This document shows positions 4,932-53,144 of a DNA stretch of 64,000 nt, piece by piece (the stretch's first letter is position 1; each line of letters opens with the position of its first letter). The position numbers were made by a program, and so were the translations under genes. The notes under the pieces are model-generated. The model did not search any database and was not told the DNA's origin. It saw nothing but the letters and a program-made list of their open reading frames with translations. This DNA is from Escherichia coli (lineage in GTDB: Bacteria; Pseudomonadota; Gammaproteobacteria; Enterobacterales; Enterobacteriaceae), in assembly GCF_024700885.2 (NCBI RefSeq), contig NZ_CP117016.1; one strand, given 5' to 3'.

Positions 4932-4994
4932 GGATCGTTCCTTTTGATTTTATCTTACTGTTTACATAACCAACCAAGCCGGGCACAATCGAGC

Positions 4995-6467: not shown

Positions 6468-6480
6468 ATATGGAGAGTTT

Positions 6481-7326
6481 ATGGCTTACACAGCAACTGT
6501 TATCCCTGTAATGATTGCTTCTCCTGGTGATGTCGCTGAAGAGAGACAAGTCATTCGTGAAATGATCCATGAGTGGAATGATATAAATTCAGCTCGTTCA
6601 AAAGTAATGTTGACACCAATTGGATGGGAAACTCATACATCACCCGAATTAGGAGTTAGGCCTCAGAAGTTGATTAATCAAAGATTATTAGTAGATTGTG
6701 ATTTATTAATCGGTGTGTTTTGGACTCGTCTAGGCTCACCGACTGGGAACGAGGCCAGCGGAACAGTCGAAGAAATCCACCGTCATTTGAATGCGGGAAA
6801 ACCGGCAATGATTTACTTTTCCTCAAAGCCTGTTGCCCCTGAAAGCCTTGATAGAGAACAATATGAGTCTCTTAAATTGTTCAAAACTGAGTGCATGCAA
6901 AAGGGATTGATAGAGTCTTTTAATGACTTATCTGATTTCAAAGACAAAGTCCGTAGGCAACTTTCGATAATTATTTCTAGTAGCCCTTATTTGTCTTCTC
7001 TTATATCTACCATTAACAATTCTCCTGATGCGAATACAAGTCAATCTTTGCCAGAAAGTAATTTGTCCGCCGATGCACTCAGTTTGCTGAAATTGGCATG
7101 TGTCGATGATAGCGGAACAATTTATGTGATAAGGCATTTAGGTGGCACGGATATTCAAGCGGGAAATCAATCCTTTGGTGGAAGTTCGGCTAGAGAGGTA
7201 GCCCGTTGGGAGGGCGCACTTAACGAACTGTTATCCTTTGATTATGTGATTGAAAGAGGGGCAAAAGGACAAATGTATTATGTTACTCATAAAGGCTGGA
7301 CATTTCTTGAATCTTTAAATGAATAA
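6481..7326 (+). CDS. Hypothetical protein, 281 aa; N-terminal motif resembles DUF4062/TIR-like domains (tentative)
   Basis: Starts 13 bp after the recombinase stop with its own SD (ggagag); N-terminus VMIASPGDVAEERQVI fits a strand-SxxD-x-EER pattern; C-terminal half unassigned. Confidence 0.6.
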   Translation: MAYTATVIPVMIASPGDVAEERQVIREMIHEWNDINSARSKVMLTPIGWETHTSPELGVRPQKLINQRLLVDCDLLIGVFWTRLGSPTGNEASGTVEEIHRHLNAGKPAMIYFSSKPVAPESLDREQYESLKLFKTECMQKGLIESFNDLSDFKDKVRRQLSIIISSSPYLSSLISTINNSPDANTSQSLPESNLSADALSLLKLACVDDSGTIYVIRHLGGTDIQAGNQSFGGSSAREVARWEGALNELLSFDYVIERGAKGQMYYVTHKGWTFLESLNE

Positions 7327-7386
7327 TTAAATGCGAGGCCATTACATAAGTTTATTTTTGATGTGAGGGTGAATTCCCTCACATTT

Positions 7387-7881
7387 TTATTCGAAAGAGG
7401 CCGCAATGACTTCTCCTGTTTTTGCGTTGAAAACACAAAAGTATTGAAGCGGAGCTAGCATCCCCAAGCCGTTAACTACCTTAGCTTGTTGCCCAAATGC
7501 CTGAATAATCTTCGCATTCTCATCGTGCCAGAGATAAGTATTAAATACAGGCGCTTCGCTTTCTTGCCACACATGGCGAAACTTCGCTTTCTCATCCATT
7601 ACCTTTTTGCACTCCCTGACCGGGTTATGGTGCGTTTTCGCATAGCATTCCGGGTTGTCATCTGCACATACGATATCTTTTCGTGCTGTCTGATGCTCAG
7701 CACCTACAGCAGAAAAGGCGCATACGCCCAGCACCAATGAGAGAGTGCCCAGAGCACCCCATACAGTTGCGCGTAGCGTGCTGATGTGCTGCTTTGATAC
7801 AGCATGGGCAACTACACTATAACTGGCCCAGCTAATCGCGGCTCCCGCTGCAATCGGTAGTAAAAAGTCTGCTCCCGTCAT
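7387..7881 (-). CDS. Hypothetical membrane protein (two predicted TM helices plus Cys-containing soluble domain)
   Basis: ORF with hydrophobic N-terminal segments; start set at MTGADFLL with SD gaggga. Confidence 0.5.
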   Translation of the reverse strand: MTGADFLLPIAAGAAISWASYSVVAHAVSKQHISTLRATVWGALGTLSLVLGVCAFSAVGAEHQTARKDIVCADDNPECYAKTHHNPVRECKKVMDEKAKFRHVWQESEAPVFNTYLWHDENAKIIQAFGQQAKVVNGLGMLAPLQYFCVFNAKTGEVIAASFE

Positions 7882-8121
7882 GATTCCCTCACTTTCCAAA
7901 CCACATCGCGCCTGATAGCGAACGCTGGTGACGCCCAACCGATGATGATCATCATACTTGTTGGGTTTTAAATGTCACCATTGGTGTTTGTTTTGAATCA
8001 AAAAGGATTGTCATGATACAGCCGATGAATGCTAGTGACTAAGCTCGCTGACGTGAGATTGGATTCAAAATATCTCATATGGAGCGTGGCCTTACAGTGG
8101 TCAAAATTGCACATTCAGTGC

Positions 8122-8586
8122 ATGAAAAAATCCCTGAGAATACAGTTTGGCGAGCGGGTAAAAGAACTGCGCATTGCCACCGGATTGAGCCAGGAGGCCT
8201 TTGCCGATCGGTGCGGGTTTGCACGTAGTTATATGAGCAGAATTGAACGTGGTGGCTCTAATGCGTCTCTGGATGCGATTGAGGTGCTGGCTAACGCTCT
8301 GAGCGTTGAGCCGTGGCAGTTGTTAGCGCCTGGCCCATCTGAAGATAACGACTCGGAACTGTTGGTTCCATACGCAGCCGATGGTTCCTGTTTTCACCCC
8401 GGTTTGGCGAGCACCCGTGATGGCTCGTTTGGCGTAGGTGATAAAGCGGCTCAGAAGCGTTTTGGCACGTTTGCTGAAGCTCTTGAGTATCTTCGTAGCA
8501 TGGAGACAGCAAAATGGCGTAGGCCTAATCCTAGCGGCAACTGGGGTATCGTATCAGCGGTTCGGTGGGACAAACTGAGAAAGTAG
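8122..8586 (+). CDS. XRE-family HTH transcriptional regulator with unassigned C-terminal domain
   Basis: N-terminal HTH (LRIATGLSQEAFADRCGFARSYMSRIERG); start at MKKSLRIQ. Confidence 0.6.
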   Translation: MKKSLRIQFGERVKELRIATGLSQEAFADRCGFARSYMSRIERGGSNASLDAIEVLANALSVEPWQLLAPGPSEDNDSELLVPYAADGSCFHPGLASTRDGSFGVGDKAAQKRFGTFAEALEYLRSMETAKWRRPNPSGNWGIVSAVRWDKLRK

Positions 8587-9076
8587 CTCAAGTGTAAGTT
8601 TATGAATTTTCATGCTGTATGGATGAACAGTATTCATTAGATGCTGATAGTCTTATGTTTCATCAGCCCTTTGTTTCTATAAGAGTGAATAAAACAGCAA
8701 AATGCGGGTGCGTTACGTAGGCGTTACGGTGGCGTTTCGCTTTGGCTCTTAATGGCTTAATTCATATAAATAACATTGAGTTAAATAGTTATTCTGAACA
8801 AGGTCTGCCGGGGTCTAACTGGTTTCAAAATCCGAACGCAGTGGCGTTTATTCAACGTCCACATAGCTGACAAATGTTCTTTCCTCCCGACTCGGCAGAC
8901 CTCCAGAAACATTAAAAGGCAGGTATGGCACGTTGATGTTTTATGCCGCCACGAACACTCGGTTTGATTCCGTCCAGCGGATCAAACTTAATATGTAGCC
9001 CCTAGAACAAAAAGGTCCTACGATTGCTCTCTTAACAGCTAACAGGAACGTGATTACAGCAGGTTATAGAGACTTA

Positions 9077-35894: not shown

Positions 35895-36551
35895 TTACTG
35901 GCCAGTTGTTGCTTCCTGAGAAGACTGATAGCGTACCGAGGTTTTGAAATAGCTCCAGAAGTCGTACACTGGCTCAGTAGAACAATATAGTTTGGAACGC
36001 ATTACCGCACCTTCCCAGCCACTCCAGAAAATAGCCGCCAGTTGTGTATTATTCATATTTGAACTTATTTCGCCTGAAGATAACGCGTCGGACAGGCAGG
36101 CCGCAACAAGTGCCTGCCAGCTCTCAAGAATATTCTGTAGTACTTTAATGAAGGATTGGGGAAGCCCCGGACTCTCCTGCATCATATTTCCAACCAGGCA
36201 GCCGCGGGTAAAATTGTATTTTTTAATCCCCTCACAGGCATCATTGATGAAATTTTCCAGACGTACCATTGGTGTGCAGGATGATTCATGTAGATGTTTT
36301 TTGAGTTTATGCTCGAAGAAACTGTCATAGGCGTTCAGAACGGTCTGAGCATAATCCTCTTTACTCTTAAAGTAGTAATAAAATGAGCCTTTAGGGACAT
36401 TGGCATTTTTAACAATGGCATCGACTCCCGTCGCAAGAAAACCATTCTGCGTCAGCAGTTCAAGGCCACTGCGGATCAGATCATTACGAGTATCTGCATA
36501 GGTACTTTCTGTCTTTCGCGGCCTTCCCCGGCCACGATTTTCGCCTGTCAT
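35895..36551 (-). CDS. TetR/AcrR-family transcriptional regulator
   Basis: HTH (LIRSGLELLTQNGFLATGVDAIVKNANVPKGSFYYYF); start at MTGENRG with SD aggag. Confidence 0.75.
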   Translation of the reverse strand: MTGENRGRGRPRKTESTYADTRNDLIRSGLELLTQNGFLATGVDAIVKNANVPKGSFYYYFKSKEDYAQTVLNAYDSFFEHKLKKHLHESSCTPMVRLENFINDACEGIKKYNFTRGCLVGNMMQESPGLPQSFIKVLQNILESWQALVAACLSDALSSGEISSNMNNTQLAAIFWSGWEGAVMRSKLYCSTEPVYDFWSYFKTSVRYQSSQEATTGQ

Positions 36552-36798
36552 GACCCATCTCCTACATTTTATTAACGCAAAAGAATAAGTGATTTTGCGC
36601 GAGAGCTTCAATCAGTTTATCCCCGCAGTGGCAAAGTGTTCGCTTTTGCCGACTGGACAGTGGCAGTGCCTGTCGCTACTGCGCCATCGCTGAACAGTGC
36701 AGAATTAGCAACGTTTGCTTTTGGCACAAAGCATACGCCCATTCTCACGCGAATGCTTTGCCCTTGACTTGCCAACAACCGAATCGCTTGCTCTGCAG

Positions 36799-38076
36799 CT
36801 ATGTTTTTTTATTAGAATATTCGCCACTAAATAAATTATAATAAGTTGATTTTATTAGATATCTATCAGAATCTATATGGTCAGCACGAGTTGCATGCTC
36901 TAATGTTTCAAATGCCAGGGTATGTGCGGCTTCAGCAAATATCCCTGGCCAACCTTTACTCAGCATCGACAGTCCTTTAAGGACTCTTATCTGAATCTCC
37001 CTCATACTGGCACCATCGCGCGCGACAGGTGAGAAAAAGTCTTCCAGTAGATCGTTATTCTGAAGTGGTGCAACATGTACTGAAGGATATTTCACTTCTA
37101 TTTCATCAGATTTATTCTGCGCGTAAGTGGAAAGTATACGAACACCTCTGCCAATGACATCAATGGCGGTTCCAGGATCGTTCACTGCAGGGGAAAGGGC
37201 CCGGCAGGCTATTTCGGCCATGACGCTAAGACAAAATCGAGGATCCTGAGCAAATGAACGTGCATCCGAGACAATAATCGTCTCAAGTAAATCGGTGCTG
37301 ATTGACGACTCCTGGCCCTGACTCAGGTACAAAACTGGCATGGACGGATGTATGAAACTGCCTGGCTGCGCCACGAGGTATACATGACGGGGATCATTGG
37401 TCAGCAGCTTGCTAAGTTTCACCATATCAATATATTCAACATAGCCAATCTTCTTCGGATAAACTGCAACCGTTCCTTTCGGCTGTTCATTGTTCTCAAG
37501 CCATGGATATCCGCCGAGACAGGGATTTCTTGCTCTCGCAATAAATGTTTCGATGGCCGCCTGTTCTACTTGTGCCGTTGTCTCACCAACCCTCCCCAGA
37601 GAGGTCAAATGCTGTATCCAGCGAAGCAATGTGATGAGGATTAAGGCAATGACAACCAGTGTGACAATGAATAAAATGACTCTCCCCCTTTCTCCATAAG
37701 CTCCCATATTGAGGGCAATAATCCCTACCAGACTGAAGAGAAAAGAACCGATGAAGGTGGCCAGTACATTTTGTGTGGTGACGTCTTCAACAACTAAACG
37801 CGTAGCTCTGGGAGTCACATTAGTAGTGGCTGAACCGTAGGCTGTGACCATGATACTCAGCGAAAATGTGGTCACTGCCAGCATACTCGATGCCAGTATG
37901 TTCAGAATGTTATCGACTGCTTCCGCACCAACCTTCACGGAAACCGACTCAGGTATCATTGATTTAAAAAGAATTGATAAAAGGGCCGTTATTATCGCGA
38001 CAATTGCGAATAACGTTGCCCTGAACCATAGTTTTTTAATTGTCTGCTTCAGCATCCATTTCCAGCGTGAAATCAT
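36799..38076 (-). CDS. DUF2254-family membrane protein
   Basis: Multi-TM N-terminal half plus soluble domain; start ambiguous (38091 or 38076). Confidence 0.55.
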   Translation of the reverse strand: MISRWKWMLKQTIKKLWFRATLFAIVAIITALLSILFKSMIPESVSVKVGAEAVDNILNILASSMLAVTTFSLSIMVTAYGSATTNVTPRATRLVVEDVTTQNVLATFIGSFLFSLVGIIALNMGAYGERGRVILFIVTLVVIALILITLLRWIQHLTSLGRVGETTAQVEQAAIETFIARARNPCLGGYPWLENNEQPKGTVAVYPKKIGYVEYIDMVKLSKLLTNDPRHVYLVAQPGSFIHPSMPVLYLSQGQESSISTDLLETIIVSDARSFAQDPRFCLSVMAEIACRALSPAVNDPGTAIDVIGRGVRILSTYAQNKSDEIEVKYPSVHVAPLQNNDLLEDFFSPVARDGASMREIQIRVLKGLSMLSKGWPGIFAEAAHTLAFETLEHATRADHIDSDRYLIKSTYYNLFSGEYSNKKT

Positions 38077-38138
38077 TCTGCATTCCCTCATATTGCGGCC
38101 GGGATAATAATTGCCGCCCCCAGGACGGCATGTTGCTA

Positions 38139-40142
38139 TTAACGAACCAGGTGCAGGAAGTGCAGATGTTTTTCGTACTGGTCCAGTATGTCATTAATCA
38201 GCTGTTCCTGGTTCCAGCCCATCACATCATAATTTTGACCGCCTTCTTTGAGATAAACCTCAGCGCGATAATATCGATGTTGTTCAGTCTGCTGCTCATC
38301 ATTATCCATTGCGGCGAGCGCGAAGGTCGGTGAGATATACCCGCGAAGCCTCACTTCATATATAAAATTCAGCTCGTTGCCCAAATCGACTTCAAGACGA
38401 ATACGATCGTCGACTGCATCACTAATGTGGCTTATCGTCCCCTGCTTGTTCAGTTCCTCCTGAACCAGCGTCATGGCGGGCTGGATAACGTCGTCCATAA
38501 AACGTTTCACAAGAGATCGCTTCGGCAGATACGCGATATTGCGTAACCTTCTCTGCCAAGGAATTGGGTTACGTGCAGCCGTAGGAGCAATTGTCGCCAT
38601 GCTCAGGCTTTCACGCTTGGTCAAATCCCGGCGCAAAGCTTTTAAAAGTCCGTATATAGATATTAGTAAGATCACTGAGAAGGGCAATGCACTCGCTATT
38701 GTCACCGTTTGCAGCGCACTTAGCCCTCCGGCAAGGAGAAGCGCAATTGCAACAATGCCCATGAGCGAGGCCCAGAATATTCGCTGCCAGACGGGTGTGT
38801 TTGCCACTCCACCTGATGCCAGAGTATCCACAACCATTGCCCCCGAATCAGCAGACGTTACAAAGAAGACGATGACCATCGCCATTGCAATGAATGACAG
38901 CACAGAAGAGAACGGGAAATGCTCCAGGAAATTAAACAGGGCCAGCGCCACATCCTGCTGAACAGTATTGGCGAGGTCTGTGGCCCCCTGGTTCATAATG
39001 AGATAGATCGCGCTGTTACCAAACACCGTCATCCACATTAGCGTAAAACCCGCGGGAACAAACAGCACGCCGGTGACAAACTCGCGAATGGTTCGCCCGC
39101 GGGAGACTCGTGCGATGAACATCCCCACAAACGGCGACCATGAAAGCCACCATCCCCAGTACAGTAATGTCCAGCCCCCCAGCCAGTTGCTCGACTTGGG
39201 CTCATACGCGTAAAGGTTGAACGTTTTACTCACCAGTTCCGAAAGATAACCGCCCGTATTTTCCACAAATGACTTCAGCAGAAGCACGGTTGGTCCCAGA
39301 CACAGGACCAGCGCCAGGAGCAACAAAGCCAGACCCAGATTGAGTTCAGACAGGATACGTATTCCCTTATCCAGACCGGACACCACTGAAATCGTCGCTA
39401 ACCCCGTGATGACCACGATCAGAATTACCTGCACCGTTTCATTGATGGGCACCCCGAAAAGATGGTTCAAACCGGCATTCACCTGCAAAACACCGTAACC
39501 CAGTGATGTCGCAACGCCAAAGACCGTGCCTATAACAGCGAAAATATCAACCGCATGTCCTACAGGTCCGTATATGCGATCGCCAATAATGGGATAGAGT
39601 GCGGAGCGCAGAGTTAAAGGCAGACCGTGACGGTAACTGAAGAACGCCAGAATCAGCGCCACAATGGCATAAATTGCCCATGCGTGCAGTCCCCAGTGGA
39701 AAAAGGTCAGACGCATTGCTTCCTTAGCTGCCGCAACGGTTTCTGGAGTGCCAACGGGTGGCGAAAGATAATGCATTACAGGTTCGGCAACGCCAAAGAA
39801 CATCAGGCCGATCCCCATCCCTGCCGAAAAAAGCATCGCAAACCAGGAGTGGTAGCTGAAATCAGGCTGCGCATGGTCCGGGCCCAGCTTGATATCACCG
39901 TAGCGTGAGAGTCCAAGGAACGTGACACTCAGTAAAATCAGGGCCACAGCAAGGATGTAGAACCAGCTGGCATTCGTGAAGATTTGTTGCTGAAGTAGTT
40001 TAAAATTTTTGTCGGCGACATCCGGGAATACGGCGGCAAAGGCGACAAGAAGGAAAATTAGCAAAGCAGATGTAAAGAATACCGCTTTGTTAATCTGACT
40101 TGTAGACTTCTTTGGGATTGTATCATTTTCACTCATAATCAT
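38139..40142 (-). CDS. BCCT-family betaine/carnitine/choline transporter
   Basis: 667 aa; BetT-like polytopic protein with long C-terminal cytoplasmic tail. Confidence 0.75.
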   Translation of the reverse strand: MIMSENDTIPKKSTSQINKAVFFTSALLIFLLVAFAAVFPDVADKNFKLLQQQIFTNASWFYILAVALILLSVTFLGLSRYGDIKLGPDHAQPDFSYHSWFAMLFSAGMGIGLMFFGVAEPVMHYLSPPVGTPETVAAAKEAMRLTFFHWGLHAWAIYAIVALILAFFSYRHGLPLTLRSALYPIIGDRIYGPVGHAVDIFAVIGTVFGVATSLGYGVLQVNAGLNHLFGVPINETVQVILIVVITGLATISVVSGLDKGIRILSELNLGLALLLLALVLCLGPTVLLLKSFVENTGGYLSELVSKTFNLYAYEPKSSNWLGGWTLLYWGWWLSWSPFVGMFIARVSRGRTIREFVTGVLFVPAGFTLMWMTVFGNSAIYLIMNQGATDLANTVQQDVALALFNFLEHFPFSSVLSFIAMAMVIVFFVTSADSGAMVVDTLASGGVANTPVWQRIFWASLMGIVAIALLLAGGLSALQTVTIASALPFSVILLISIYGLLKALRRDLTKRESLSMATIAPTAARNPIPWQRRLRNIAYLPKRSLVKRFMDDVIQPAMTLVQEELNKQGTISHISDAVDDRIRLEVDLGNELNFIYEVRLRGYISPTFALAAMDNDEQQTEQHRYYRAEVYLKEGGQNYDVMGWNQEQLINDILDQYEKHLHFLHLVR

Positions 40143-40246
40143 TTATTCCATTAATTAAATTCGCACTGGATAGAAGGTACTACCTCTCACAAAGTAGCAA
40201 AGTTCAACTGGCTATGCGGCGTTAATCGGAATGCATGGTGGAATGT

Positions 40247-41493
40247 TGAGGTGTACTGGCAATAGCGGACACTACCATTTGTTCTTTTTTTAAGCAGCCA
40301 TCTGATGATATTTTTCCCTGAAGGCTGCCGGGGAGATATTCCCCAGACGAGAGTGACGACGCTGACGATTGTAGAAAATCTCAATGTATTCCCGTATTAC
40401 TGAGATGGCTTCATCCCGGTTATTAAAACGATAGTGGCTCAGGCTCTCATTTTTCAGCGTTCCCCAGAAGCTTTCCATCGGAGCGTTGTCGTAACAGTTA
40501 CCTTTACGCGACATTGATGTTTTCAGACCAAACTGCTCCTGTATGACACGGTAATCGTATGCGCAGTACTGTGAACCTCGATCAGAGTGGTGGATTAGCC
40601 CGGCAGGTGGGCGCTGGCTCCTGAGCGCCATAAACAGGGCTTTACCTGTCAGCTCTTTTGTCATGCGCTCTCCCATGGCGTAGCCGACAATTTCGCACGT
40701 ATAAACATCTTTGATGCCAGCGAGGTACAACCATCCCTCCTGTGTGGCAACATACGTCAGGTCCGCCACCCAGACCTGATTTGGTGCTGTAGGAGCGAAC
40801 GTCTGGTTCAGCAGATTTGGCGCAACTGGCAGATTGTGGTTCGAGTTCGTAGTCGCTCTGAACTTGCGTTTCTGCTTACAGCGTAGCCTTAGCTCCTTAC
40901 GAAGACGTGCCAGTCGGTCACGACCAACGATGATGCCATTCTCTGCCAGCTCCGTCTGGAGCTGCCGGGTTCCATATGTTTCGCGAGTGCGGATATGCGC
41001 CACCTTAATCTCCAGTTTTAGCCGCTCATCACTTTGTTTTCTGTCTGAGGGTTCATGCTGTACCCAGTTGTAATAACCGCTCCTGGATACACCAAATACC
41101 TGACACATCGCTTCAATGGGAAATTGTTGTCGCCATTGTTCGATTAACGCGTATTTTTCAGCGACTCCTGTGCAATTTAATATATCTCGCTCAAGGCGAG
41201 CTTCATTTAACGCCTTACGCAGTTGCAGAATTTCAGATTCCAGTTCAGCCACCGTGCGGGAACCAGGAGTACCGAGCCCTTTTCTGGCGGCGGTAACCCA
41301 TTGTCCTAAAGTGCCTTCAGGAAGAGATAATCGGGAAGCACCTTCACTGATCGAAAGTTGATTTTCAAGAACCGTTCTGACAGCTTCGGCTTTGAACTCT
41401 TTAGAGTAACGTTGGGTTTTTCTGCTCATTATTAGCTCCTTCTGATGCCATTCTATTTCAGGAAGGAGTGTCCGTTAAACTCAGGCTACCTCA
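40247..41493 (-). mobile_element. IS3-family insertion sequence (1247 bp), imperfect terminal IRs TGAGGT...CGGACACT
   Basis: Terminal repeats at 40247-40276 and 41464-41493; internal transposase. Confidence 0.7.
40290..41429 (-). CDS. IS3-family transposase encoded as a single fused OrfAB reading frame (379 aa)
   Basis: N-terminal HTH and C-terminal DDE integrase core (ADLTYV, HHSDRGSQY, YDNAPMESFW) in one uninterrupted frame. Confidence 0.75.
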   Translation of the reverse strand: MSRKTQRYSKEFKAEAVRTVLENQLSISEGASRLSLPEGTLGQWVTAARKGLGTPGSRTVAELESEILQLRKALNEARLERDILNCTGVAEKYALIEQWRQQFPIEAMCQVFGVSRSGYYNWVQHEPSDRKQSDERLKLEIKVAHIRTRETYGTRQLQTELAENGIIVGRDRLARLRKELRLRCKQKRKFRATTNSNHNLPVAPNLLNQTFAPTAPNQVWVADLTYVATQEGWLYLAGIKDVYTCEIVGYAMGERMTKELTGKALFMALRSQRPPAGLIHHSDRGSQYCAYDYRVIQEQFGLKTSMSRKGNCYDNAPMESFWGTLKNESLSHYRFNNRDEAISVIREYIEIFYNRQRRHSRLGNISPAAFREKYHQMAA

Positions 41494-41575
41494 TTGGTTC
41501 CCACTACTTATTTGGTGGACACCACTTTGTCTAATTCGTCAGATTCTGACCAGACGGTTCAGGCTGTACGCTTAC
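41494..41575 (-). mobile_element. Orphan IS66-family terminal fragment (82 bp)
   Basis: Same 82-bp string as 49521-49602, the left end of the IS66 copy at 47315-49602, ending ...GTACGCTTAC. Confidence 0.7.
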
Positions 41576-41609
41576 AAACAACTAGTGGAAATACTTGTAC
41601 TTTATAATT

Positions 41610-42554
41610 TCAAGGGTACGGGTCCGCTTCGTTTGATTTGCGTGTTTTTAACAATTTTAAAACCCAGACATACTGTTCCGGATGTGGCCCCACCAAAATT
41701 TCCACTGTTTTGTTCATTTGTCGGGCAATCATTTTATTGTCCGCGCTGGCAATGCAAGCATCCATTGGTGGCCGAATTTCAATAGTCAGGAGATGTTTTT
41801 TTTCATCATAAACCGGGAAAAGTGGTATAATCATAGCCTGACTGATGTTCATCAGACGTCCAATGATTGGTAATGTCGCTTTATAGGTCGCAAAAAAATC
41901 AGCAAATTCACTGTATTCAGGACCATGATCCTGATCTGGGAGGTAATATCCCCAGTATCCCTGGCGTACTGACTGAATAAATGGTTTTATCCCATCCTCC
42001 CGGGCATGTAAGCGCCCCCCGAATTTACGCCGTACTGAATTCCAGACATAATCAATCACTGGATTTCGTTGCTGATGAAACATGGCGGCCATTTTTTTTC
42101 CCTGAGCTGCCAGCAACATTGCAGGAATATCCACGCTCCAGCCATGGGGAACCAGAAAAATCACATTTCTATTATTGTGTCGAATTTCCTCAAGAATTTC
42201 GAGGCCTTTCCAGAACACTCGTTTCTGGAACTTTTCCGGACCACGAATTGCCAGTTCTGCCATCATCACTATGGATTGCAATGCTGTGGCAAACATTTTG
42301 TCGACAATTATTTCCCGTTCTGTATCACTCTTTTCTGGGAAACAAAGCGATAAATTAATCGTCGCCCTGCGACGAGCTTTTTTGCTCAATCTGCCCACCC
42401 AACGCCCTATTTTTGCCAAGACAGGATCTCTGAATGAAGGGGGAAACATTGAAATACCTGCAATCATTCCCAAAAGGAACCATGTAGACCAGTAAACAGG
42501 GGAAAGGTAATTTTTCTTAAATTCAGGAATAAACTCAGATTTATATTTTTTCAT
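41610..42554 (-). CDS. Lipid A secondary acyltransferase (LpxL/LpxM family, MsbB2-like)
   Basis: 314 aa; LpxM-family call on overall similarity (acyltransferase H-box region around VPHGWS); adjacency to a virK-like gene as on Shigella virulence plasmids. Confidence 0.7.
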   Translation of the reverse strand: MKKYKSEFIPEFKKNYLSPVYWSTWFLLGMIAGISMFPPSFRDPVLAKIGRWVGRLSKKARRRATINLSLCFPEKSDTEREIIVDKMFATALQSIVMMAELAIRGPEKFQKRVFWKGLEILEEIRHNNRNVIFLVPHGWSVDIPAMLLAAQGKKMAAMFHQQRNPVIDYVWNSVRRKFGGRLHAREDGIKPFIQSVRQGYWGYYLPDQDHGPEYSEFADFFATYKATLPIIGRLMNISQAMIIPLFPVYDEKKHLLTIEIRPPMDACIASADNKMIARQMNKTVEILVGPHPEQYVWVLKLLKTRKSNEADPYP

Positions 42555-42618
42555 TATTTAGTGCGAATGCCTCTACCAAAATTATCATTACTGTTTTATT
42601 CAGAGAATACATCAAACC

Positions 42619-43233
42619 TTAATTTAAATTCTGATGTTCTGAGTGTACAGGATATGCATCCAAAGAGCGGATAGTAGTTTCATGGATATAATCCAGCAAA
42701 GCGTATCGTTTTCGGTACTCAGAGCGTTTTTTACTGGCTATATCGCTTAGCGGCTTTCGAATCACCTGGGTTGGTAATCTGTACCAGTCACCACAGGTTT
42801 TTCCTGCTACAGACTCCCAGAAATCACTATAGACCGCAACAAAGGTTTTGCGTTTCTGATACCAGTATCTCAATTGCCGGAAAACATGACTGTGCTCACT
42901 GACTGCCAGACACTCAGAGATATTGCAAGCTTTCATCAACGCACAAAATGCTTCAAAAATAATCCGTTTTGGGAAAATCCCATAACAGGCCCGGGTTGCG
43001 CACCGAATAACATCAGGTCCGGTATTTTTAGGGGCTCCCTGTAATCCGCCAATAAAAGCAATGTGTCCATTTTGAGTCAGAATGACTGAAAATGTTAACC
43101 GGGCAATAACTGTTTTATTGTAAAACAATGACAACATCAACTCTCCTTCCCGGTCAAAACCACTGGGAGAACACTGGATATCAAAATTCTCTCCATCTTT
43201 CCCGATGAATTGGACTAATGATACCGATTTTTG
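42619..43233 (-). pseudogene. VirK-like (DUF535) gene, 5'-truncated at the IS1 boundary
   Basis: C-terminal 173 aa (IGGLQG, ACYGIFPKRI, RKTFVAVYSDFW); ORF runs into the IS1 end at 43234. Confidence 0.55.
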
Positions 43234-43288
43234 GGTAATGCTGCCAACTTACTGATTTAGTGTATGATGGTGATTTTAAGGTGCTTGC

Positions 43289-43564
43289 GTGGCTTCCATT
43301 TCCATCAGATGTCCTTCCTGCTCCGCTACTGAAGGCGTGGTGCGTAACGGCAAAAGCACTGCCGGACATCAGCGCTATCTCTGCTCTCATTGCCGTAAAA
43401 CATGGCAACTACAGTTCACTTACACCGCCTCTCAGCCCGGTACGCACCAGAAAATCATTGATATGGCCATGAATGGCGTCGGATGTCGCGCCAGTGCACG
43501 CATTATGGGCGTTGGCCTCAACACGGTTTTACGTCACTTAAAAAACTCAGGTCGCAGTCGGTAA
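43289..43564 (+). CDS. insA: IS1 InsA
   Basis: [30 protein letters not shown]... Confidence 0.85.
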
Positions 43565-43986
43565 CCTCGCGCATACAACCGGGCAGTGATGTGATTGTCT
43601 GCGCTGAAATGGACGAACAGTGGGGCTACGTCGGTGCTAAATCACGTCAGCGCTGGCTGTTTTACGCGTATGACAGGATACGGAGGACGGTTGTGGCGCA
43701 CGTCTTCGGTGAACGCACTCTGGCCACACTGGAGCGTCTTCTGAGCCTGCTGTCGGCCTTTGAGGTCGTGGTATAGATGACGGATGGCTGGCCGCTGTAT
43801 GAATCACGCCTGAAGGGAAAGCTGCACGTTATCAGCAAGCGTTACACTCAGCGCATTGAGCGACATAATCTGAATCTGAGACAACATCTGGCAAGGCTGG
43901 GACGGAAGTCACTGTCGTTCTCAAAATCGGTGGAGCTGCATGACAAGGTCATCGGGCATTATCTGAACATAAAACACTATCAGTAA
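43483..43986 (+). pseudogene. insB: IS1 InsB with in-frame TAG stop at 43774-43776
   Basis: Translation reads ...[18 protein letters not shown] across the stop; canonical IS1 has W at this position as I recall it. Confidence 0.7.
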
Positions 43987-44071
43987 GTTGGAGTCATTAC
44001 CTCCTCCCGAACTCAAAGCTATCATACAGATAATTACTGGTTAACCCTATATAGGGCATTTTAAAGTGTTG

Positions 44072-44400
44072 TGATCTTACCCAGCAATAGTGGACACGCG
44101 GCTAAGTGAGTAAACTCTCAGTCAGAGGTGACTCACAAGACAAAACAGTTTCAACCAGTAAAAAAACGTAAACACCATTCGCATGAATTTCGTAGTTAAG
44201 ATCTGAAGCTTGCAGAATGCATCGGTGTTACTGCCGGAGTCCGTGAACTTAGTCTGCATGAATCACCACAGCTTTACATCTGTCGCAGTAAACAGCAAAA
44301 TCAGCAAACTTACTTAATTATATCGAGTGCGATTACAATCGCTGGCGATGGTACAGTTGGTGTGGCGGTCTCAGTCCGGAACAATTTGAAAATCAGAATC
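44072..44400 (+). mobile_element. IS3 internal-deletion relic (left IR, 5' of orfA, fused to the 3' end region)
   Basis: TGATCTTACCCAGCAATAGTGGACACGCGGCTAAGTGAG... followed by degenerate orfA 5' sequence and then orfB 3' sequence. Confidence 0.55.
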
Positions 44401-44710
44401 TCACTTAAAACGGCATCCATTTTACAAAAGATGGCCGTCTGTGTATTTATAATGAATACCTTCTACATGTTTAGAGTGCATAATCCACGACAAGGCGATA
44501 TCCTAAAAATTAGCTAGCAGGCAACTTTGATGGCATAGATAATGTTTTTAGTAAAAAAGAGTTGACTTAATATAATACAGCCTCTTCCTACATAAGAAGG
44601 AATGTGCTCACAAAAAAAAACATTAGTCTGCTTCCTGTTCTTACAATAATCAGTATTATGTATTTTATTTATATAGCAAAATATGCTTGTTACACCTGTC
44701 ATAATTAGGC

Positions 44711-45004
44711 ATGGTAAAATTATTGACTGAACCCTGGGGGAGAAAGATGCACAGTGATTATTATAATATGGTTTTTGGTGAAAAATTGGCCAATATTTTA
44801 TATGAAGCTAACTCTCAATTTTTTTACGAGAGAAATGTCATAGAAGAGGCAGTCAACGCTTTATTCTGTGAGCGTGAAATAATAAACAACAAGAACATAA
44901 TAAAGAAGCTGATGTTCTTTTTGTCAGATGTTAATCACACCAAGAAAGATGTTGTTCAGAGCGCACTTAATATTATCATTGACATTACATCAGGTGATAT
45001 TTGA
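44711..45004 (+). CDS. Hypothetical small protein (97 aa), AT-rich
   Basis: ORF only; no recognisable motif; weak support. Confidence 0.25.
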   Translation: MVKLLTEPWGRKMHSDYYNMVFGEKLANILYEANSQFFYERNVIEEAVNALFCEREIINNKNIIKKLMFFLSDVNHTKKDVVQSALNIIIDITSGDI

Positions 45005-45261
45005 GATTTTACATAAAAGATAATCTCTCAAGGAGTCTTATCTGAAAACGAAATATATAGTCCCTCTCGTTTTGTAATATCGATTGGCTTTGTTGAATCG
45101 GTTACGTACCCCGGAGCCGGTCATATTTTCAGGTAATACACACGCTTTCAGACATTTCGGCTTTCGTCATTTTGGTATCATGGGCATAGCTTCTGCTACC
45201 TGACCATCATAATCACGCAGCTTCAGTGAAGCAGTGACCACCTGTTTAACCCGGTGTATCG

Positions 45262-45486
45262 TTATGATCTTATCCAGCAATAATGGACACGCGGCTAAGT
45301 GAACCGCCCCGGGTTTCCTGGAGAGTGTTTTATCTGTGAACTCAGGCTGCCAGATCATCGTTTCCGATGGAAGCATAATAAGCTTTTTCTGCTTCTGCCG
45401 GTGGGATATGGCCCTGCCTTTCCAGCAATCGTCGATTGTTATACCAGTCCACCCACGTGAGTGTGGTCAGCTCATCATACTGACAC
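45262..45486 (-). mobile_element. IS3-family (IS629-like) 3' fragment abutting a second IS3 left-IR copy
   Basis: Minus-strand frame encodes ...WVDWYNNRRLLERQGHIPPAEAEKAYYASIGNDDLAA; end sequence TGAACCGCCCCGGGTTTCCTGGAGAG. Confidence 0.5.
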
Positions 45487-45754
45487 GTGCATTACCCCTA
45501 CCGCGATAATGCAACCGTACAATATAGGGCGTTTCCTAAACGCAGCCCTCATCACTCCAATCCAACAAGACACAGCATTTTTGATCACGAAGAAAGACAA
45601 ATAATTTCCGTAAATGTTTCCGTTGTTACAAATAACAACAGTGTTTTACATTTCTTTGGCCTCAGGCCCGCGCATGTTGCCATTCGATGTCATTTTCCTG
45701 ACTCGTTTCTTCTTTATGGTGTAGTGTGATCTTCACTTTATGGATGCTAACAAT

Positions 45755-47113
45755 ATGAAAAGAAAAATTATTCCCGTGCTAATCGGTTGTACGCTCTCTT
45801 TCTCTGCCCTGGCGGCACAACCTACGGCTGAGCGCTATGTCGTCAGTTTTCCAGAAGGCACGCACGTGAACTACGCCGGCGCATTTGCCAGTGCATTCCC
45901 GAACGGCCTTCCGGTTGGGATAGGTTCTGGCCTGCTGTTCACCGGTAAACAGGGCGATGCCCTGACATTCGCAACCATTACCGATCGCGGTCCGAACGCG
46001 GATTCACCGAAAGAGGGGAAAAACGAAACTAAAATTTTCGTTACGCCAGATTTCGCGCCGCTGCTGATGACGATTCGTGTACAAAACGGCAAAGCGGAGG
46101 CCATCGATCCCCGTCCTCTGCATGACGATAAAGGCGCGATCAACGGTCTGCCGCTGGCAAGCGACGTGATTGGCTCCACCAATGAAGTGGCCTTCAGCGA
46201 CACGTTACATAGACTGAAGGGGGATAATCGCGGGCTGGATACGGAAGGGATCACTCCGGATGGTAAAGGAGGTTACTGGCTGTGCGATGAGTATGGCCCG
46301 TTCCTGATTAACATCGACAGTAAAGGGAAAATCCTGGCAATCCACGGTCCGCAGGCGGCGGAAGAGGAAAAAGCGATTGCGGGCGGTTTGCCAAATATCC
46401 TCAAATGGCGTCAGGCGAACCGCGGCTTTGAAGGCCTCACCCGTATGCCGGACGGGCGTATTATTGTCGCCGTGCAAAGTACGCTGGATATCGACGCTAA
46501 GAGCAAGAAAAAGGCGCTGTTTACGCGTCTGGTGAGCTTCGATCCGGCAAGCGGAAAAACCGCGATGTACGGTTATCCCATCGACAGCGCGGCCTACAGC
46601 AAAAACAGCGACGCTAAAATCGGAGACATCGTGGCGCTCGATAACCAGCACATCCTGCTGATCGAACAGGGAAGAGATAAAAACAACAGAATGCGTAACC
46701 TGATTTACGAGGTCGATCTCAATAAGGCGAGCGACCTGTCAGGCTTCGACAAGCCGGGTGAGTATCCGGAGTTTGATGATGAGAAAACCCTGTCACAGCG
46801 CGGCATTACCCTTGCGCAGAAAACGCAGGTTGTTGATCTGCGCTCCTTGGGCTGGCAGCAGGAGAAGGCTGAAGGGTTGGCGCTGATCGACAGCAAAACG
46901 CTGGCGGTGGCGAACGATAACGACTTTGGCGTGAAGGTGGCGATGCAACATCCGGTCGAGGGCAAGACATTCAAGGATTATCGGGTGAACGCGGAAGGAA
47001 AGCTGACGCTTGACGACAAGCAGGTTGAAACGACCCTCAGAGTGAAGCCACTGGAGAAACCGGAGTCTGACAGTGAACTGTGGATTGTGACGCTGCCGGA
47101 AGCGTTGAAATAA
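45755..47113 (+). CDS. Secreted phytase-like esterase family protein (signal peptide)
   Basis: N-terminal signal sequence MKRKIIPVLIGCTLSFSALAA; family call is tentative. Confidence 0.55.
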   Translation: MKRKIIPVLIGCTLSFSALAAQPTAERYVVSFPEGTHVNYAGAFASAFPNGLPVGIGSGLLFTGKQGDALTFATITDRGPNADSPKEGKNETKIFVTPDFAPLLMTIRVQNGKAEAIDPRPLHDDKGAINGLPLASDVIGSTNEVAFSDTLHRLKGDNRGLDTEGITPDGKGGYWLCDEYGPFLINIDSKGKILAIHGPQAAEEEKAIAGGLPNILKWRQANRGFEGLTRMPDGRIIVAVQSTLDIDAKSKKKALFTRLVSFDPASGKTAMYGYPIDSAAYSKNSDAKIGDIVALDNQHILLIEQGRDKNNRMRNLIYEVDLNKASDLSGFDKPGEYPEFDDEKTLSQRGITLAQKTQVVDLRSLGWQQEKAEGLALIDSKTLAVANDNDFGVKVAMQHPVEGKTFKDYRVNAEGKLTLDDKQVETTLRVKPLEKPESDSELWIVTLPEALK

Positions 47114-47314
47114 GTTTATAAGGTACGGACAGCAGTATCGCTTAGTTTTTCAAATTCATGTATGTGAACAATATTGGGGTTCCGGCGTAGACCCCCAATG
47201 AAAGCGTCACCACGTGAAAACATGCCTGCACGGTTTACACGTCATCCCATGGTGGCAGCCGGTTAACTTTCCTGCGCCACCAGTGGAAAAAGGCCATAAG
47301 CAGTCCGAACAAAA

Positions 47315-49602
47315 GTAAGCGTACAGCGAGGGCCGTATTGACGGGGATGTGTTATTCAGCTGGCAGTGCTATGCGCCACGGAAGCAGTTCGCTGACCCGG
47401 TTGACCGGCCAGTCTGCTATGACGCCAGGCACATGGCGAAGGTAGCTTTCTGGATCCACGTCATTCAGTTTGCACGTCCCGATCAGGCTGTACAGTAGCG
47501 CTCCCCGCTCACCACCATGGCCAGAGCCGAAGAACAGGGTCTTCATCTTTTCACGCAACCAGCTTTCCAGGGATTTCAACAGCGGTTTCGTTTTTCGCTG
47601 ACGTTCAGCAAGCCGCTGCTCTGCCGGCATTCCCCTTATATCCGCCTCTATGGCGTACAACTGACCGATCTGCTCCAGGGCTTCTTCCGTCAGTGCTGAC
47701 GGGATGCGGACGTGCACATCGTGGATCTTTCGGCGGGCATGAGCCCAGCAGGCAGCTTCCGTTATCCCACCATTGCGATACAGCTCGTTGAACCCGGCGT
47801 ACGCATCCGCTTGCAGCACACCGCTGAAGCAAGCAAGATGAGTCTGCGGATGGATGCCTTTTCTGTCCGGGCTGTAAGCGAACCTCACTGCAGGTGCCAA
47901 CGCTGACCCGGCATTGCGGTCATCACGAACATACGCCCACAACCGCCCGGTCTTCGTCTTCTTATTACCCGGCAGCAGTACCTGGACCGGGGTATCATCG
48001 GCATGGAGTTTGCCGTCAGTCATGACATAGCCATGAAGCGCCTCTTCCAGCGGAGACAGCAGCCGGCAGCATGCATCCACCCAGCCCGACAGCAGTGAAC
48101 GGCTCAGCTCCACACCTTGCCGGCCGTATATTTCTGACTGGCAATACAGCGGGGTGTGCTCTGCATACTTCGAGGTCAGCACGCGGGCCAGCAGCCCCGG
48201 TCCGGCGATACCCCGCTCGATGGGCCGCGAAGGTGCAGGTGCCTGCACGATGGCATCGCACTGAGTACAGGCATGTTTTTCCCGTACCGTCCGGATAACC
48301 CGGAAGGCGCTACGCATCAACTCCAGCTGTTCGGCGGTATCCTCGCCCAGATAGCTCAGTGAACCGCCGCAGTTCGGGCAGCACGGCGCCGCAGGCAACA
48401 GTCGCTTTTCGTCACGGGGTAGTGATTCAGGGAACGGCTTACGGGTGCGGGTCTGACGCAACGGACGCTGTACTGCCGGGTCATACACCCTACCAGTCAG
48501 CGTATCGCTCTCTTTCTGAAGCCGGTTCAGATCGGCTTCCATTTGTGCGATACGGCGGGAGACTTTTTCGGAACGACTGCCGAAGTTCATCCGGCGGAGT
48601 TTATCCAGCTGCGCCTGCAGATGTCTATTTCGCGCTCCCGGTTGCTCAGCTTTTCCTGCAGGGCGTGGATCAGCGCTTCCTGTTCGGCCAGGCGCTGTTT
48701 CAGCAGGAAGATGTCGTCAGAAGAGATTTCGTTCATAAGCCCGTATTTTACCGGGCTTATTCTGTGACAACCAGGATAAAGAGATTTACAGCATGGTCAG
48801 GGAGGTCAGCAGCCGCTTGGGCTGTCGCCAGTCGATACCTTCCAGCAGCATCGCCAGCTGCGCCTGCGTAAGGAACACTTTGCCATCACGGGCTGACGGC
48901 CAGGCGAAGCGCCCACGCTCCAGCCGTTTGGTCAGGAGGCACAGTCCGTCACCGGTGGACCACAGCAGTTTAACCTGACTGCCGCTGCGGCCCCGGAAAA
49001 TGAAAACATGGCCGGACATGGGATCGTCTTTCAGCGCCGTCTGTACTTTCGCAGCCAGGCCGTTGAAGCCATTTCTCATATCGGTGATACCGGCAACCAG
49101 CCAAATTTTGGTCCCGGAAGGTAACGGGATCATCGCTTCAGTTCCTGTATCAGCAGAGTCAGGAGCTTTTCGCTGACATTGCCATTGAAGCGGAGCGTCC
49201 CGTGCCGGAACGTTACCTCACAGCTGATACTGAGGGTTTCCGGGTCCTCTGCGAGCGATTCTGGCTGTTCGGCAGCTGCATCGGGAGTCACAGGAAGTAG
49301 CTGGGGGCTCTCTGAAGAAGGTAATAGCAGCTTTCCCTCGCGCCATTGTTGTCGCCATTTGAACAACAGATTGGCGTTAATGCCATTTTCAAGAGCAAGT
49401 TTTGAGATGGATATCCCGGGTTCACAGGAGGCAGCAACGAGCTGCTGTTTAAATTCGGGAGGATAATTAGGGCAGCCTTTTCACCTGCCGGGAGTCACAT
49501 TTTTCTGCATATCTGACACTTTGGTTCCCACTACTTATTTGGTGGACACCACTTTGTCTAATTCGTCAGATTCTGACCAGACGGTTCAGGCTGTACGCTT
49601 AC
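47315..49602 (-). mobile_element. IS66-family element, degenerate (tnpC frameshifted with an internal deletion)
   Basis: Ends GTAAGCGTAC... and ...GTACGCTTAC; orfA 49130-49366, orfB 48786-49133, tnpC pieces 47352-48590 and ~48600-48760. Confidence 0.75.
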
Positions 49603-49708
49603 CACTATTTTATCCCTGTTGAATTTGGTTAAGCCGGTGCAGACGCGCCGGGAAACGCACACCTGAACCGGCACAATAAAATACAATACAACCCCCTGTT
49701 ACTGGAGA
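49603..49708 (+). repeat. Second copy of the 106-bp repeat, directly abutting the IS66 end
   Basis: Identical to 35432-35537. Confidence 0.8.
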
Positions 49709-49864
49709 TACGAATGGAATGACGAGGCAGCCTGTCAGTCACAGGGGGCTGTTGGCATAAAATCAACGGAAAGGCCACCAACACCGGAATTAAGCTCCAC
49801 AGTCCCCGCACTGGCAATCCATTCCCGGGAAAGGCATCACCGCAAACTGCTCCGGAGGCAACCA

Positions 49865-50299
49865 TTACAGCCTCTGTAACGGATTATCAGCCCTGGCATC
49901 TTCCGACGGCACCTCCTGCCGCCCCCACGCCCTGCTGTATACCCCGGTACCGCAGCGTGGGCAGCACTTTTCCCCCTCATAATCTTCGTCACACATCACA
50001 CAAAACCACTTTCTCACCTTCACCGTATAATCCGGAACCGTCATGCCCTGCAGATGCAAACGACGGGCCTCTTTCTCCGCCGGGTCAAGCCAGGTACATC
50101 GCAGCAGGATTTTTTCAGCGACAGTCATCTGGTCATGTTCAAACCACGGTGGTTGTCCGTCATTGCCCCGCTGAAGTGTTAACGGGCATCCACAGGACAC
50201 ACAGCACAAAACGTCCTGTCGGTTGTGCTTCGCAGCTTCTTTCGCCGTAACAAAATGGCCTTTGCTGTCATTCGCCATATAACAGTTCAGAATTCGCAT
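49865..50299 (-). CDS. Zinc-ribbon hypothetical protein (paralog 1)
   Basis: CxxC pairs (CCVSCGC, CVMCDEDYEGEKCCPRCG); start set at MRILNCYM. Confidence 0.5.
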   Translation of the reverse strand: MRILNCYMANDSKGHFVTAKEAAKHNRQDVLCCVSCGCPLTLQRGNDGQPPWFEHDQMTVAEKILLRCTWLDPAEKEARRLHLQGMTVPDYTVKVRKWFCVMCDEDYEGEKCCPRCGTGVYSRAWGRQEVPSEDARADNPLQRL

Positions 50300-50694
50300 A
50301 TTTCCTCCTGAGTTGTCCGGGGAATACTGAATCCTCCGGTCTGGCAGTGTGTGCAGTACTGCTCCCCATAATAATCGTGGTGACATTGTCTGCAGTGCCA
50401 GCTGGCTTTACGCACCACGGGTAAGGCATCCGATACGAATTGCTGCAGACGTTTAATCAACTGTATTTCTCTGCGCTCCGGCCTGACATAAGGGCACTGT
50501 TGACCGTGCTCTGTCAGCCTGTCGTCAGTGTGTTCAAACCAGGGAAGTTCAGTGTCGTATTGCGGATGGTATCTGAGTGCACTGCCACACAAGTGGCAGG
50601 TGTAGTTAGCATAAGGTGCGTCCTGTGCAGTACGGGCGCCCGTCAGACGTCCGTTGCCATCAAGAGCGATAAAGGATTTTGCGTACATAGTCAT
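50287..50694 (-). CDS. Zinc-ribbon hypothetical protein (paralog 2)
   Basis: CxxC pairs (CHLCGS, CRQCHHDYYGEQYCTHC); shares the WFEH motif with paralog 1. Confidence 0.55.
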   Translation of the reverse strand: MTMYAKSFIALDGNGRLTGARTAQDAPYANYTCHLCGSALRYHPQYDTELPWFEHTDDRLTEHGQQCPYVRPERREIQLIKRLQQFVSDALPVVRKASWHCRQCHHDYYGEQYCTHCQTGGFSIPRTTQEEICEF

Positions 50695-50947
50695 ATTCCT
50701 TAGCCGCCAGACGACACGCAGGCAACAGCCGTCCCGGTACGGGCAGCGTGGTCAGGGTGTGAATGGCGGTTCAGTTAAAATCTGGACTGGAGTTTGGGTA
50801 AAGCAGGCTGGTTGCTGTTACAGCACTGTGGTTGTCACACAATGGAACACTGACGTAAAAAACAGTCAGTGGGCGAGTGGATACATCGTTGCCGCCAGAC
50901 AACAACCCATACTTTTGGTTTGCCGGATATTGGCGCGCCAGTCGTGC

Positions 50948-51517
50948 TCAACTCCGGCTACAGCCAAAATTGCGCTCACCGGTGCAGTGAGCTTTGGTAT
51001 GCTCTTTCGCCAGATAGTCAGCACGTTCCAGCACTTGCTGAAAGCCGGTGTCATCATTACGCGCCAGCCACACCGCCGGCCAGGCCGGAAAATGCACCAG
51101 CGTGGCATGGCACCCGACATCCACTCCCAGGGCACTGCACCACGCCTGTTTAATCATCCCGGCCAGAGACTCCGGAGCGCGGTAATCACCGGCACGACAC
51201 CAGGTATCCCGGTTGACCAGCAGCATCAGGTGATAGTGTTTTTTACCTTTGAACTCCCCAAACTCCCGGGCCCAGACGTAATGCAGGGGGGTGGGATGCA
51301 CGCGTTTACCTTTCCGATGCTTACGTTTCTGGTAAGCGTCGATTCGGGCTTTCAGGGCATTGATGAAGCGGGATATCACAGCTGCGTCCGTTGCTGCCGG
51401 TACATCCGGGAGACGCAGGTCAACCCGCAATGCCGTCAGGCGGGGATGAACATTCAGTGCGTGCCGCACCGTCTCACGAATACGTTGCTGCCAGAAGGGG
51501 TTGTATTTGTAGGTCAT
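50948..51517 (-). CDS. YagK/YfjJ-family (inovirus Gp2-like) protein
   Basis: Start set at MTYKYNPFWQQRIRETV; prophage-remnant family. Confidence 0.6.
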   Translation of the reverse strand: MTYKYNPFWQQRIRETVRHALNVHPRLTALRVDLRLPDVPAATDAAVISRFINALKARIDAYQKRKHRKGKRVHPTPLHYVWAREFGEFKGKKHYHLMLLVNRDTWCRAGDYRAPESLAGMIKQAWCSALGVDVGCHATLVHFPAWPAVWLARNDDTGFQQVLERADYLAKEHTKAHCTGERNFGCSRS

Positions 51518-51712
51518 GGTTAAATCTCCGTATGGTTCATACGGAATAGCCACGTCGTAAAAAATGCGCAGAGTCCCTGAAGTGACCTCCGGCAGGACAC
51601 TGTCTCAGGCACTCTGTGATAACCCGAACGGTCGTCTCCGGACTGACGGTTGAATTTTCAGCGTCGTTTTTTAATGTAAAAAACCGGTTACGGGTAAGGC
51701 TGTGAGGAGGGA

Positions 51713-51916
51713 GTGATGGTGATACGCAAAAAGAAGTGCAGGGATTGTGGAAACGCGATTACTCATAATACAGTGTGTTGCCCGTATTGTGGTTCTGTCG
51801 ACCCCTTCGGCTACTACCGGAATACAGACCGTATCGTTACCATACTGCTGGCGCTGATTATTGTGGTCCTGCTGACTACTGTCAGCGTCAGTGTGTGTAT
51901 ACTGTGTAGCTGGTGA
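51713..51916 (+). CDS. Small zinc-ribbon plus TM protein (67 aa), hypothetical
   Basis: CRDCGN...CCPYCGS followed by a hydrophobic tail. Confidence 0.3.
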   Translation: MMVIRKKKCRDCGNAITHNTVCCPYCGSVDPFGYYRNTDRIVTILLALIIVVLLTTVSVSVCILCSW

Positions 51917-53144
51917 GATAACGGTTCATGTATCCCCTGAGCTGACAGTGTACCGTGTATATTAAGCGTAACCGACAGGTTCTCCTTCATACCATATTAA
52001 ATTTTCCAGGGATTGCCGCTGCCTTATTTCGTCTCATACAGGAAAACTCATCTGGGTTTCTGACAAATACGCGAAACTCACAGCCCCTCAATATCAACCA
52101 CACGTTGTAAGCCGGTAATACCTGAAAATCAGCCTATTACCGCCCACGCCTCCGGCACCATTCCCTTTTGATTTCGAATTCTTTGTTGTCGCTATACCGC
52201 TTAATGTTCCCGGTCCTCCGGTGCAGATAACACCGGAGTCATCGTAGCGCTGCTTCAATATTCAGGTGACATATTTCCAGACGGAAGCCGGCGCGCGATC
52301 GTAAAGTTTGTTCATTGTCAGTTCTGCCAGCCGGTTGTCAACGGCAGAGTTAAAGGCTTCCAGCTCCGCAAGGGTAAGTTTATAACGCGTGTGGGAATTC
52401 ACTTTTCCCGCGTCTCCTGACGTATTACGGGCTGCCACTTACCTGGTGTCCCGCAATACAGCCTTAGTGTTCCGTTATCGGGGATCCGGACGCACCGCAA
52501 CAACCGGGGAAGTATTTCTGGTTTAGAGCATTGTCAAGAGGGATTTCTCAGCCCCTCACTCACCGCTCAGTCTCAGGGCAGGAGCATTAATACGCTCAGT
52601 TCATGTCTTATACAGGAATGGGCACAGGGGGAGCTGGCGTGTCACTGCTGATTTTACGCATCAGCGTTCATGTATCTGCACTCTGATACATGAACGATTC
52701 ACAGCGCTCTGTTACCGGAGAGATTTACTCTCTTAGCTTACTCTGGCAAATCCTTTACGTTACTCTCTGATGACTTCTTATATTTATAATACCAATCAGA
52801 CAGCCTTATCCCATCGGTGATATCAGTCTCCTCCTCGCCAGGAACGGGCTGACTCACTGTAACCACCTCCGAAAACAACTCTGCAATTATCAGAACGCCT
52901 GCTTCTCTCCCTGTCCTCACGAAAACTATCCCCTCTTTATCGCGCGTGCGTGCGGAAGCATCTTTTCGCAACAACCACCCGGTATACCGGTACGGCTCAG
53001 CCACCGCAACCTCCCCGTTTATCTCCTGGCGGTCACATTCCCGATTATTTTTTACGTTTCTCCCCGGTTGTTATGCCGGTGAAGGTGGCGCGCTGTTTTC
53101 ATGACCACACCGGCTGGTTTAACAACATCCGGAGGAACATTCTC

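Follow-up and report, generated by a model that had tools for sequence, protein, structure and literature searches.

The stretch of DNA analysed here, a window of 64 kb, corresponds to the leuX (tRNA-Leu) island of the E. coli chromosome. An insertion sequence of the IS1F type occupies positions 43234-44001 on the plus strand and abuts a remnant of virK, termed virK' (42619-43233, minus strand), which retains the 3' 615 of 951 nt, is cut exactly at the IS1 end and is annotated by PGAP as "incomplete; missing N-terminus". The initial annotation had described the 5' half of virK as missing; the gene is indeed truncated, although the loss comprises the first 112 codons (336 nt), or 35% of its length, rather than one half. 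The remnant adjoins an intact lpxM/msbB2 paralogue (41610-42554, minus strand), and the lpxM-virK' segment displays 98.7% identity to Shigella pINV. On the other side of the element, the older right flank of IS1F (44002-44408) contains a truncated hypothetical gene and IS3-family remnants, and the same flank is found in strains AR_0011 and TUM2805. A BLAST comparison with strain MLI114 revealed 99.998% identity over 64 kb, the sole difference being one A absent from a homopolymer run at position 44612, which is possibly a sequencing difference between the assemblies. Two 82-bp direct repeats are located at 41494-41575 and 49521-49602, each being 100% identical to the AR_0011 counterpart of the other. 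The first lies between an IS3-family transposase and lpxM, with the Shigella pINV homology starting right after it at position 41576, and is probably a solo IS66-type end fragment, while the second is located at the tnpA-proximal end of an IS66-family element.

The IS1 element comprises 768 bp with both ends complete, starting with GGTAATGCTG and ending with AGTCATTACC. The left terminal inverted repeat (IRL, 43234-43256, plus strand) begins at the junction 43233|43234, its first base being the deletion endpoint described below, and the right terminal inverted repeat (IRR, 43979-44001, minus strand) adjoins the right flank TCCTCCCGA; IRL and the reverse complement of the right end match at 20 of 23 positions. 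The insA gene (43289-43564, plus strand) is intact, with 91 codons, a GTG start, a TAA stop and matches to the Pfam families Zn_ribbon_InsA and HTH_Tnp_IS1. The A6C motif of programmed -1 frameshifting (AAAAAAC, 43540-43546, plus strand) is also intact, and the fused InsAB' frame that crosses it is open up to codon 162. Codon 163, counted in the 232-codon InsAB' frame (the IS1A length), is an amber codon (43774-43776, plus strand; TGG to TAG, W163*), which splits the DDE_Tnp_IS1 domain at profile positions 61/63 of 131. Pfam places the InsA zinc ribbon and the IS1 HTH upstream of TAG, along with the initial 61 of 131 DDE_Tnp_IS1 positions, and the orphaned 3' part of insB (43777-43986, plus strand) opens with an ATG right after the stop and comprises 69 codons covering profile positions 63-131. 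When the Trp codon is restored, the frame matches PF03811 (E = 1.5e-19), PF12759 (1.8e-27) and PF03400 (2.3e-74). The element thus displays the attributes of the IS1 family, namely a length of 768 bp, GGT(A/G)ATG-type ends of ~23 bp, an insA/insB' arrangement in -1 frame with A6C, and zinc ribbon, HTH and DDE domains, and it lacks those of an autonomous element, the InsAB' frame being interrupted at codon 163 of 232. PGAP annotates the CDS at the locus as a pseudogene ("programmed frameshift; internal stop"), and the internal stop is likewise flagged at this locus in MLI114, JE86-ST05 and AR_0011. A search of the 64-kb window for a second IS1 copy that might have acted as recombination partner identified only the copy at 43234-44001.

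Comparison with strains carrying intact virK, as recommended in the initial annotation, revealed the precursor arrangement in AR_0011. The order of genes in this strain is DUF2254, BCCT, IS3, lpxM, intact virK, capU, shf, IS3 and group II intron debris, fecEDCBA, fecRI, ykiE and IS1F, the latter also with an internal stop, followed by a right flank of the window type. Window positions 36550-43233 align with positions 1944-8628 of the AR_0011 locus (L012) at 99.7% identity, and positions 43230-49603 align with L012 23230-29605 at 99.8%. Four bases at the start of the second block overlap the left flank by chance, such that the element itself starts at 43234 (L012 23234). L012 8629-23233, a segment of 14,605 bp, is missing from the window, and the coordinates in strain 600468 reveal the same ~14.6 kb spacing. 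The earlier suggestion that one flank of the element had been deleted was therefore correct, since the two structures differ by one clean 14,605-bp deletion at the left terminus of IS1. The junction letters can be read directly from the alignment: the retained sequence ends in ...TTTTTG, the deleted segment extends from TGGAAAC... to ...GATTTC, and IS1 starts with GGTAATG. No base is shared across the edges and the junction therefore cannot be shifted, which places the endpoint at the terminal base of IRL without microhomology. The target site is AT-rich, with 24% GC within 25 bp on either side.

Each junction was counted across a set of 5,426 complete E. coli genomes. The left junction of the K-12 type, ykiE|IS1F, is present in 2,597 genomes and the right junction of the window, IS1F|TCCTCCCGA, in 2,070, whereas the left junction of the window, virK'|IS1, was found in 44 genomes at no less than 98.8% identity (41 of them at 100%), along with one unrelated IS1B junction. 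IS1F is located at the fec edge of the leuX island in about half of E. coli genomes, and the rarity of virK'|IS1 beside a common right junction identifies the virK' junction as the derived state. Intact virK and capU are found on ~400 chromosomes, several of them near a fec-IS1F junction. The IS1F copy in the window is 100% identical to the fec-linked copies of AR_0011 and TUM2805, which lie in the fecI-ykiE neighbourhood; the window itself has lost this neighbourhood through the deletion of fec. In AR_0011 and 600468 the distance from virK-capU to the right junction of IS1F is 14.6 kb, with both on the same strand. In strain ESY001 (NZ_CP086342.1) they instead lie at ~620.7 kb and 643.0 kb, at a distance of ~22 kb and on opposite strands, an arrangement that suggests an inversion in the region.

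It is very probable that the whole locus is explained by IS1F, an old isoform defective in its transposase, beside an IS1 adjacent deletion in an AR_0011-like ancestor. IS1 is known to promote adjacent deletions. Here the precursor is known, the endpoint coincides with the IS terminus, the IS is kept and the right flank is identical, and retention of an IS together with a deletion that starts from its terminal base and leaves the opposite flank unchanged constitutes the signature of IS-promoted adjacent deletion. We infer that the deletion was mediated by transposase, as an adjacent deletion through intramolecular transposition. In this mechanism, the left end of IS1F in the AR_0011-like ancestor would have been joined to an AT-rich site inside virK. 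The intervening 14,605 bp, comprising the first 336 nt of virK, capU, shf, the IS3 and group II intron debris, fecABCDE, fecIR and ykiE, would then have been lost. The outcome would be a direct fusion of virK' to IS1F, with the old right flank unaltered.

The flanks of the element are consistent with such a deletion but carry a longer history. The left 9-mer is CGATTTTTG (43225-43233) and the right 9-mer is TCCTCCCGA (44002-44010). A target-site duplication (TSD) of 8-10 bp, sought in any register within the two 25-bp flanks, was not found, the longest common string being 4 nt and out of register. The initial annotation had already reported that the 9-bp flanks do not match and had given the right 9-mer correctly, although its left 9-mer (gatttttgg) extended one base into the element. 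It had taken the missing TSD as a sign that one flank was probably deleted, and adjacent deletions are among the established causes of missing duplications (PMC11708052). A flank was deleted, but this is not the sole cause: in the precursor, which represents the common arrangement, the flanks are GGGGATTTC and TCCTCCCGA, and in K-12 they are GGGGATTTC and GACCATGTT, neither pair forming a TSD. As both arrangements already lack a TSD, its loss predates the virK event and is not due to the 14.6-kb deletion alone, and IS1F must also have undergone at least one earlier rearrangement.

A two-step route to the same structure is unlikely. IS1 would first have inserted into virK in direct orientation, duplicating CGATTTTTG, and RecA-dependent recombination with the fec-linked IS1F would subsequently have deleted 14.6 kb together with one IS; the incoming copy could have been IS1F mobilised in trans or another isoform. 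The product would be identical to the observed structure, the final structure being the same for both routes, and recombination between IS copies is a common cause of missing duplications. In addition, IS1 has entered virK independently elsewhere, with strain 315 and PRO_A-1370 both presenting IS1B beside virK. Against this, the predicted intermediate, a reciprocal junction of the IS1 right end, CGATTTTTG and the 5' part of virK, was absent from the 5,426 E. coli genomes and from the 72,556 plasmids of PLSDB, which is negative evidence. Furthermore, the IS1 left at the junction matches the precursor IS1F at 100% identity, including its private T319, such that an incomer of another isoform must have crossed over within the first few dozen bases. 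A match with apparent full coverage in PRO_A-1370 was considered as a candidate intermediate and rejected, as its pieces lie ~390 bp apart and reflect a different IS1B insertion.

Import of a ready-made virK'|IS1 junction from a pINV- or pAA-type plasmid carrying an IS1-flanked shf-capU-virK-msbB2 module, joined to the chromosome through recombination with IS1F, is highly improbable. The module of the Shigella plasmid pBS512_211 does lie between two direct IS1 copies, in the same orientation and only 2 nt from the window copy. However, the junction is covered by no plasmid in PLSDB, the best matches spanning the left or the right part only. Moreover, DUF2254, BCCT, IS3 and lpxM, to the left of virK', are collinear with AR_0011 at 99.7% identity, with intact virK at the same site in that strain, and a local deletion thus explains everything without plasmid import.

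As the initial annotation noted, insB contains a nonsense codon where Trp is expected: positions 43768-43779 read GTGGTATAGATG, and a single G-to-A change at 43775 (element position 542) distinguishes them from the TGG of IS1A and of the nearest intact relatives, the Shigella pINV IS1 copies. What had not been recognised is that the element is IS1F, whose reference copy has the stop. In alignments to reference IS1 elements, as the initial annotation had proposed, the copy is 99.35% identical to IS1F, with the same TAG, and 90.9% identical to IS1A; copies of one isoform are expected to share above ~95% of nucleotides and IS1A-E lie at ~90%. K-12 MG1655 has an identical GTGGTATAGATG in its reference IS1F, where insB7 (b4576) is curated as a pseudogene. 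The stop thus characterises an isoform already known and is not a strain-specific mutation. A sense-codon variant had been raised as a possible refutation and found no place in this comparison, since the closest intact copies read TGG and TAG is therefore a genuine nonsense change at a Trp codon. A sequencing or assembly error in an element that is really intact, to which the single base separating the window from intact Shigella IS1 copies might point, has a negligible chance of being correct, as K-12 MG1655 has the same base in its curated pseudogene, the identical copies of MLI114, TUM2805 and AR_0011 have TAG, and the exact TAG-centred 56-mer is found in 2,958 E. coli records in all.

The position of the stop suggests what the truncated protein may still do. 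The second catalytic Asp and the Glu of the IS1 D-D-E motif, reportedly defined by Ohta et al. in 2002, map to the downstream part, and the stop lies, in keeping with the Pfam domain split, just before the second Asp, in WMTDGW. The truncated transposase should therefore bind the ends of the element without catalysis. The TAG-ATG arrangement might additionally allow re-initiation and some residual activity of a split transposase, which we regard as a weaker extra possibility.

Both IS1F alleles found at the virK' junction contain the amber codon, as does the precursor copy, and the element was thus already defective at the time of the deletion. A transposase from another IS1 copy would then be required, and it was probably supplied in trans. 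In K-12 experiments, IS1F does not move alone, and no other IS1 is mobilised as readily by InsAB' provided in trans (PMC12903888, PMC12428005), IS1F accounting for 44% of events among the four otherwise immobile copies IS1B, C, D and F (PMC12903888). The element cannot transpose by itself, but IS1 transposase produced at other sites in the cell can still act on it. The fuller proposal, that the ends of a transposase-dead IS1F, acted upon by InsAB' from another copy, produced a natural 14.6-kb deletion of fec and shf-capU-virK in the leuX island, is advanced with slightly less than even confidence. If true, it would provide a natural counterpart of the trans-mobilisation demonstrated so far only with over-expressed transposase in K-12.

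The genomes that share the virK'|IS1 junction do not share a single IS1F allele. The K-12-type allele is found in 39 genomes at this locus and the window allele in a minority, and the deletion model therefore requires a later allelic exchange. When window positions 42795-52034 were compared with JE86-ST05 (L002), the 7.7 kb on the left side of IS1 showed 2 differences, while 58, among them an 18-bp indel (45282-45299), were counted to the right, starting at element position 156. So uneven a distribution indicates that a recombination boundary lies between 42795 and 43389, at the left part of IS1F or slightly within it, and such a boundary would explain how two IS1F alleles came to be associated with one deletion junction. 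Other variants were also observed at the same locus. Strain WWCOL-315 (L011 3081-3848) presents the same order of virK', IS1 and right flank with a chimeric IS1, in which the left ~450 nt are of the window type, including T319, and the right ~320 nt are IS1A-like. In this chimera TGG is restored and the transposase is annotated as intact; recombination with a different IS1 isoform apparently repaired the amber codon. CUVET21-37 and E17 display the same 98.8% junction identity as WWCOL-315. In strain 315 (L010 5466-10767), an IS1B-type element meets virK' 15 bp further in, leaving 600 nt of the gene, with tetR(B)-tet(B)-tetC and a further IS1 beyond it; here IS1F and its right flank have been replaced in an independent event mediated by IS1.

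Overall, the locus represents ordinary IS-mediated deletion and genome decay in a decaying island, involving an element that was already known. Once the element is recognised as IS1F, there is no reason to read the stop as an error or as a mutation private to one strain, and annotation pipelines already mark the pseudogene. Comparison with the precursor attributes the virK'|IS1 junction of 44 of the 5,426 genomes to one event. Through it, a lineage that includes human and animal E. coli isolates lost shf, capU and a functional virK along with the ferric-citrate uptake system. The junction could act as a lineage marker, and the locus offers a natural example of a non-autonomous IS that still shapes a genomic island.

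The closest known relative by name is the IS1F of K-12 MG1655 (NC_000913.3 4518472-4519239; insA7 b4294, insB7 pseudogene b4576), which shares with the window copy its length of 768 bp, 99.35% identity, the amber position, IRL and IRR, an intact A6C and the lack of a TSD, and which has the same left neighbour, fecI-ykiE, as the copies in the precursor genomes of the window. The two copies differ by 5 substitutions, at element positions 156, 210, 319, 677 and 703. At 4 of these 5 the window copy retains the state of IS1A and the pINV IS1, while the K-12 copy has changed, and the window copy is thus less decayed than the K-12 IS1F; unlike the latter, it has a private C319T, which replaces Pro with Ser in InsAB'. 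Their surroundings also differ, the left neighbour in the window being virK' instead of ykiE and the right neighbour not being yjhU. In the K-12 MG1655 locus (L006 4473-5260), the left ykiE junction is the one common to ~2,600 genomes and the right neighbour is yjhU instead, such that a second rearrangement likely affected the right end. A second adjacent deletion as the origin of the K-12 flank was tested by seeking yjhU downstream of IS1F in AR_0011, where it is absent.

By sequence, the iso-IS1 of Shigella pINV (pBS512_211, WP_094106546.1) is closer still, being 99.74% identical to the window copy with 2 nt differing and the same ends, and it is likewise tied to the shf-capU-virK-msbB2 module. 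It differs in having TGG at codon 163 (G542), C at position 319 and a transposase annotated as intact. In Shigella boydii pBS512_211 (L003 1441-8331), shf-capU-virK-msbB2 is located between two direct intact IS1 copies in a composite-transposon-like arrangement. Matching 9-bp flanks were found at none of the three IS1 copies inspected (two in pBS512_211 and one in L004).

The event itself resembles the classical IS1 adjacent deletions that arise by intramolecular replicative transposition, in which the IS is kept, the deletion starts at its terminus, the target is AT-rich and no TSD is formed. This contrasts with the classical cases in one respect, which is that the IS at the edge of the present deletion is without a transposase of its own.
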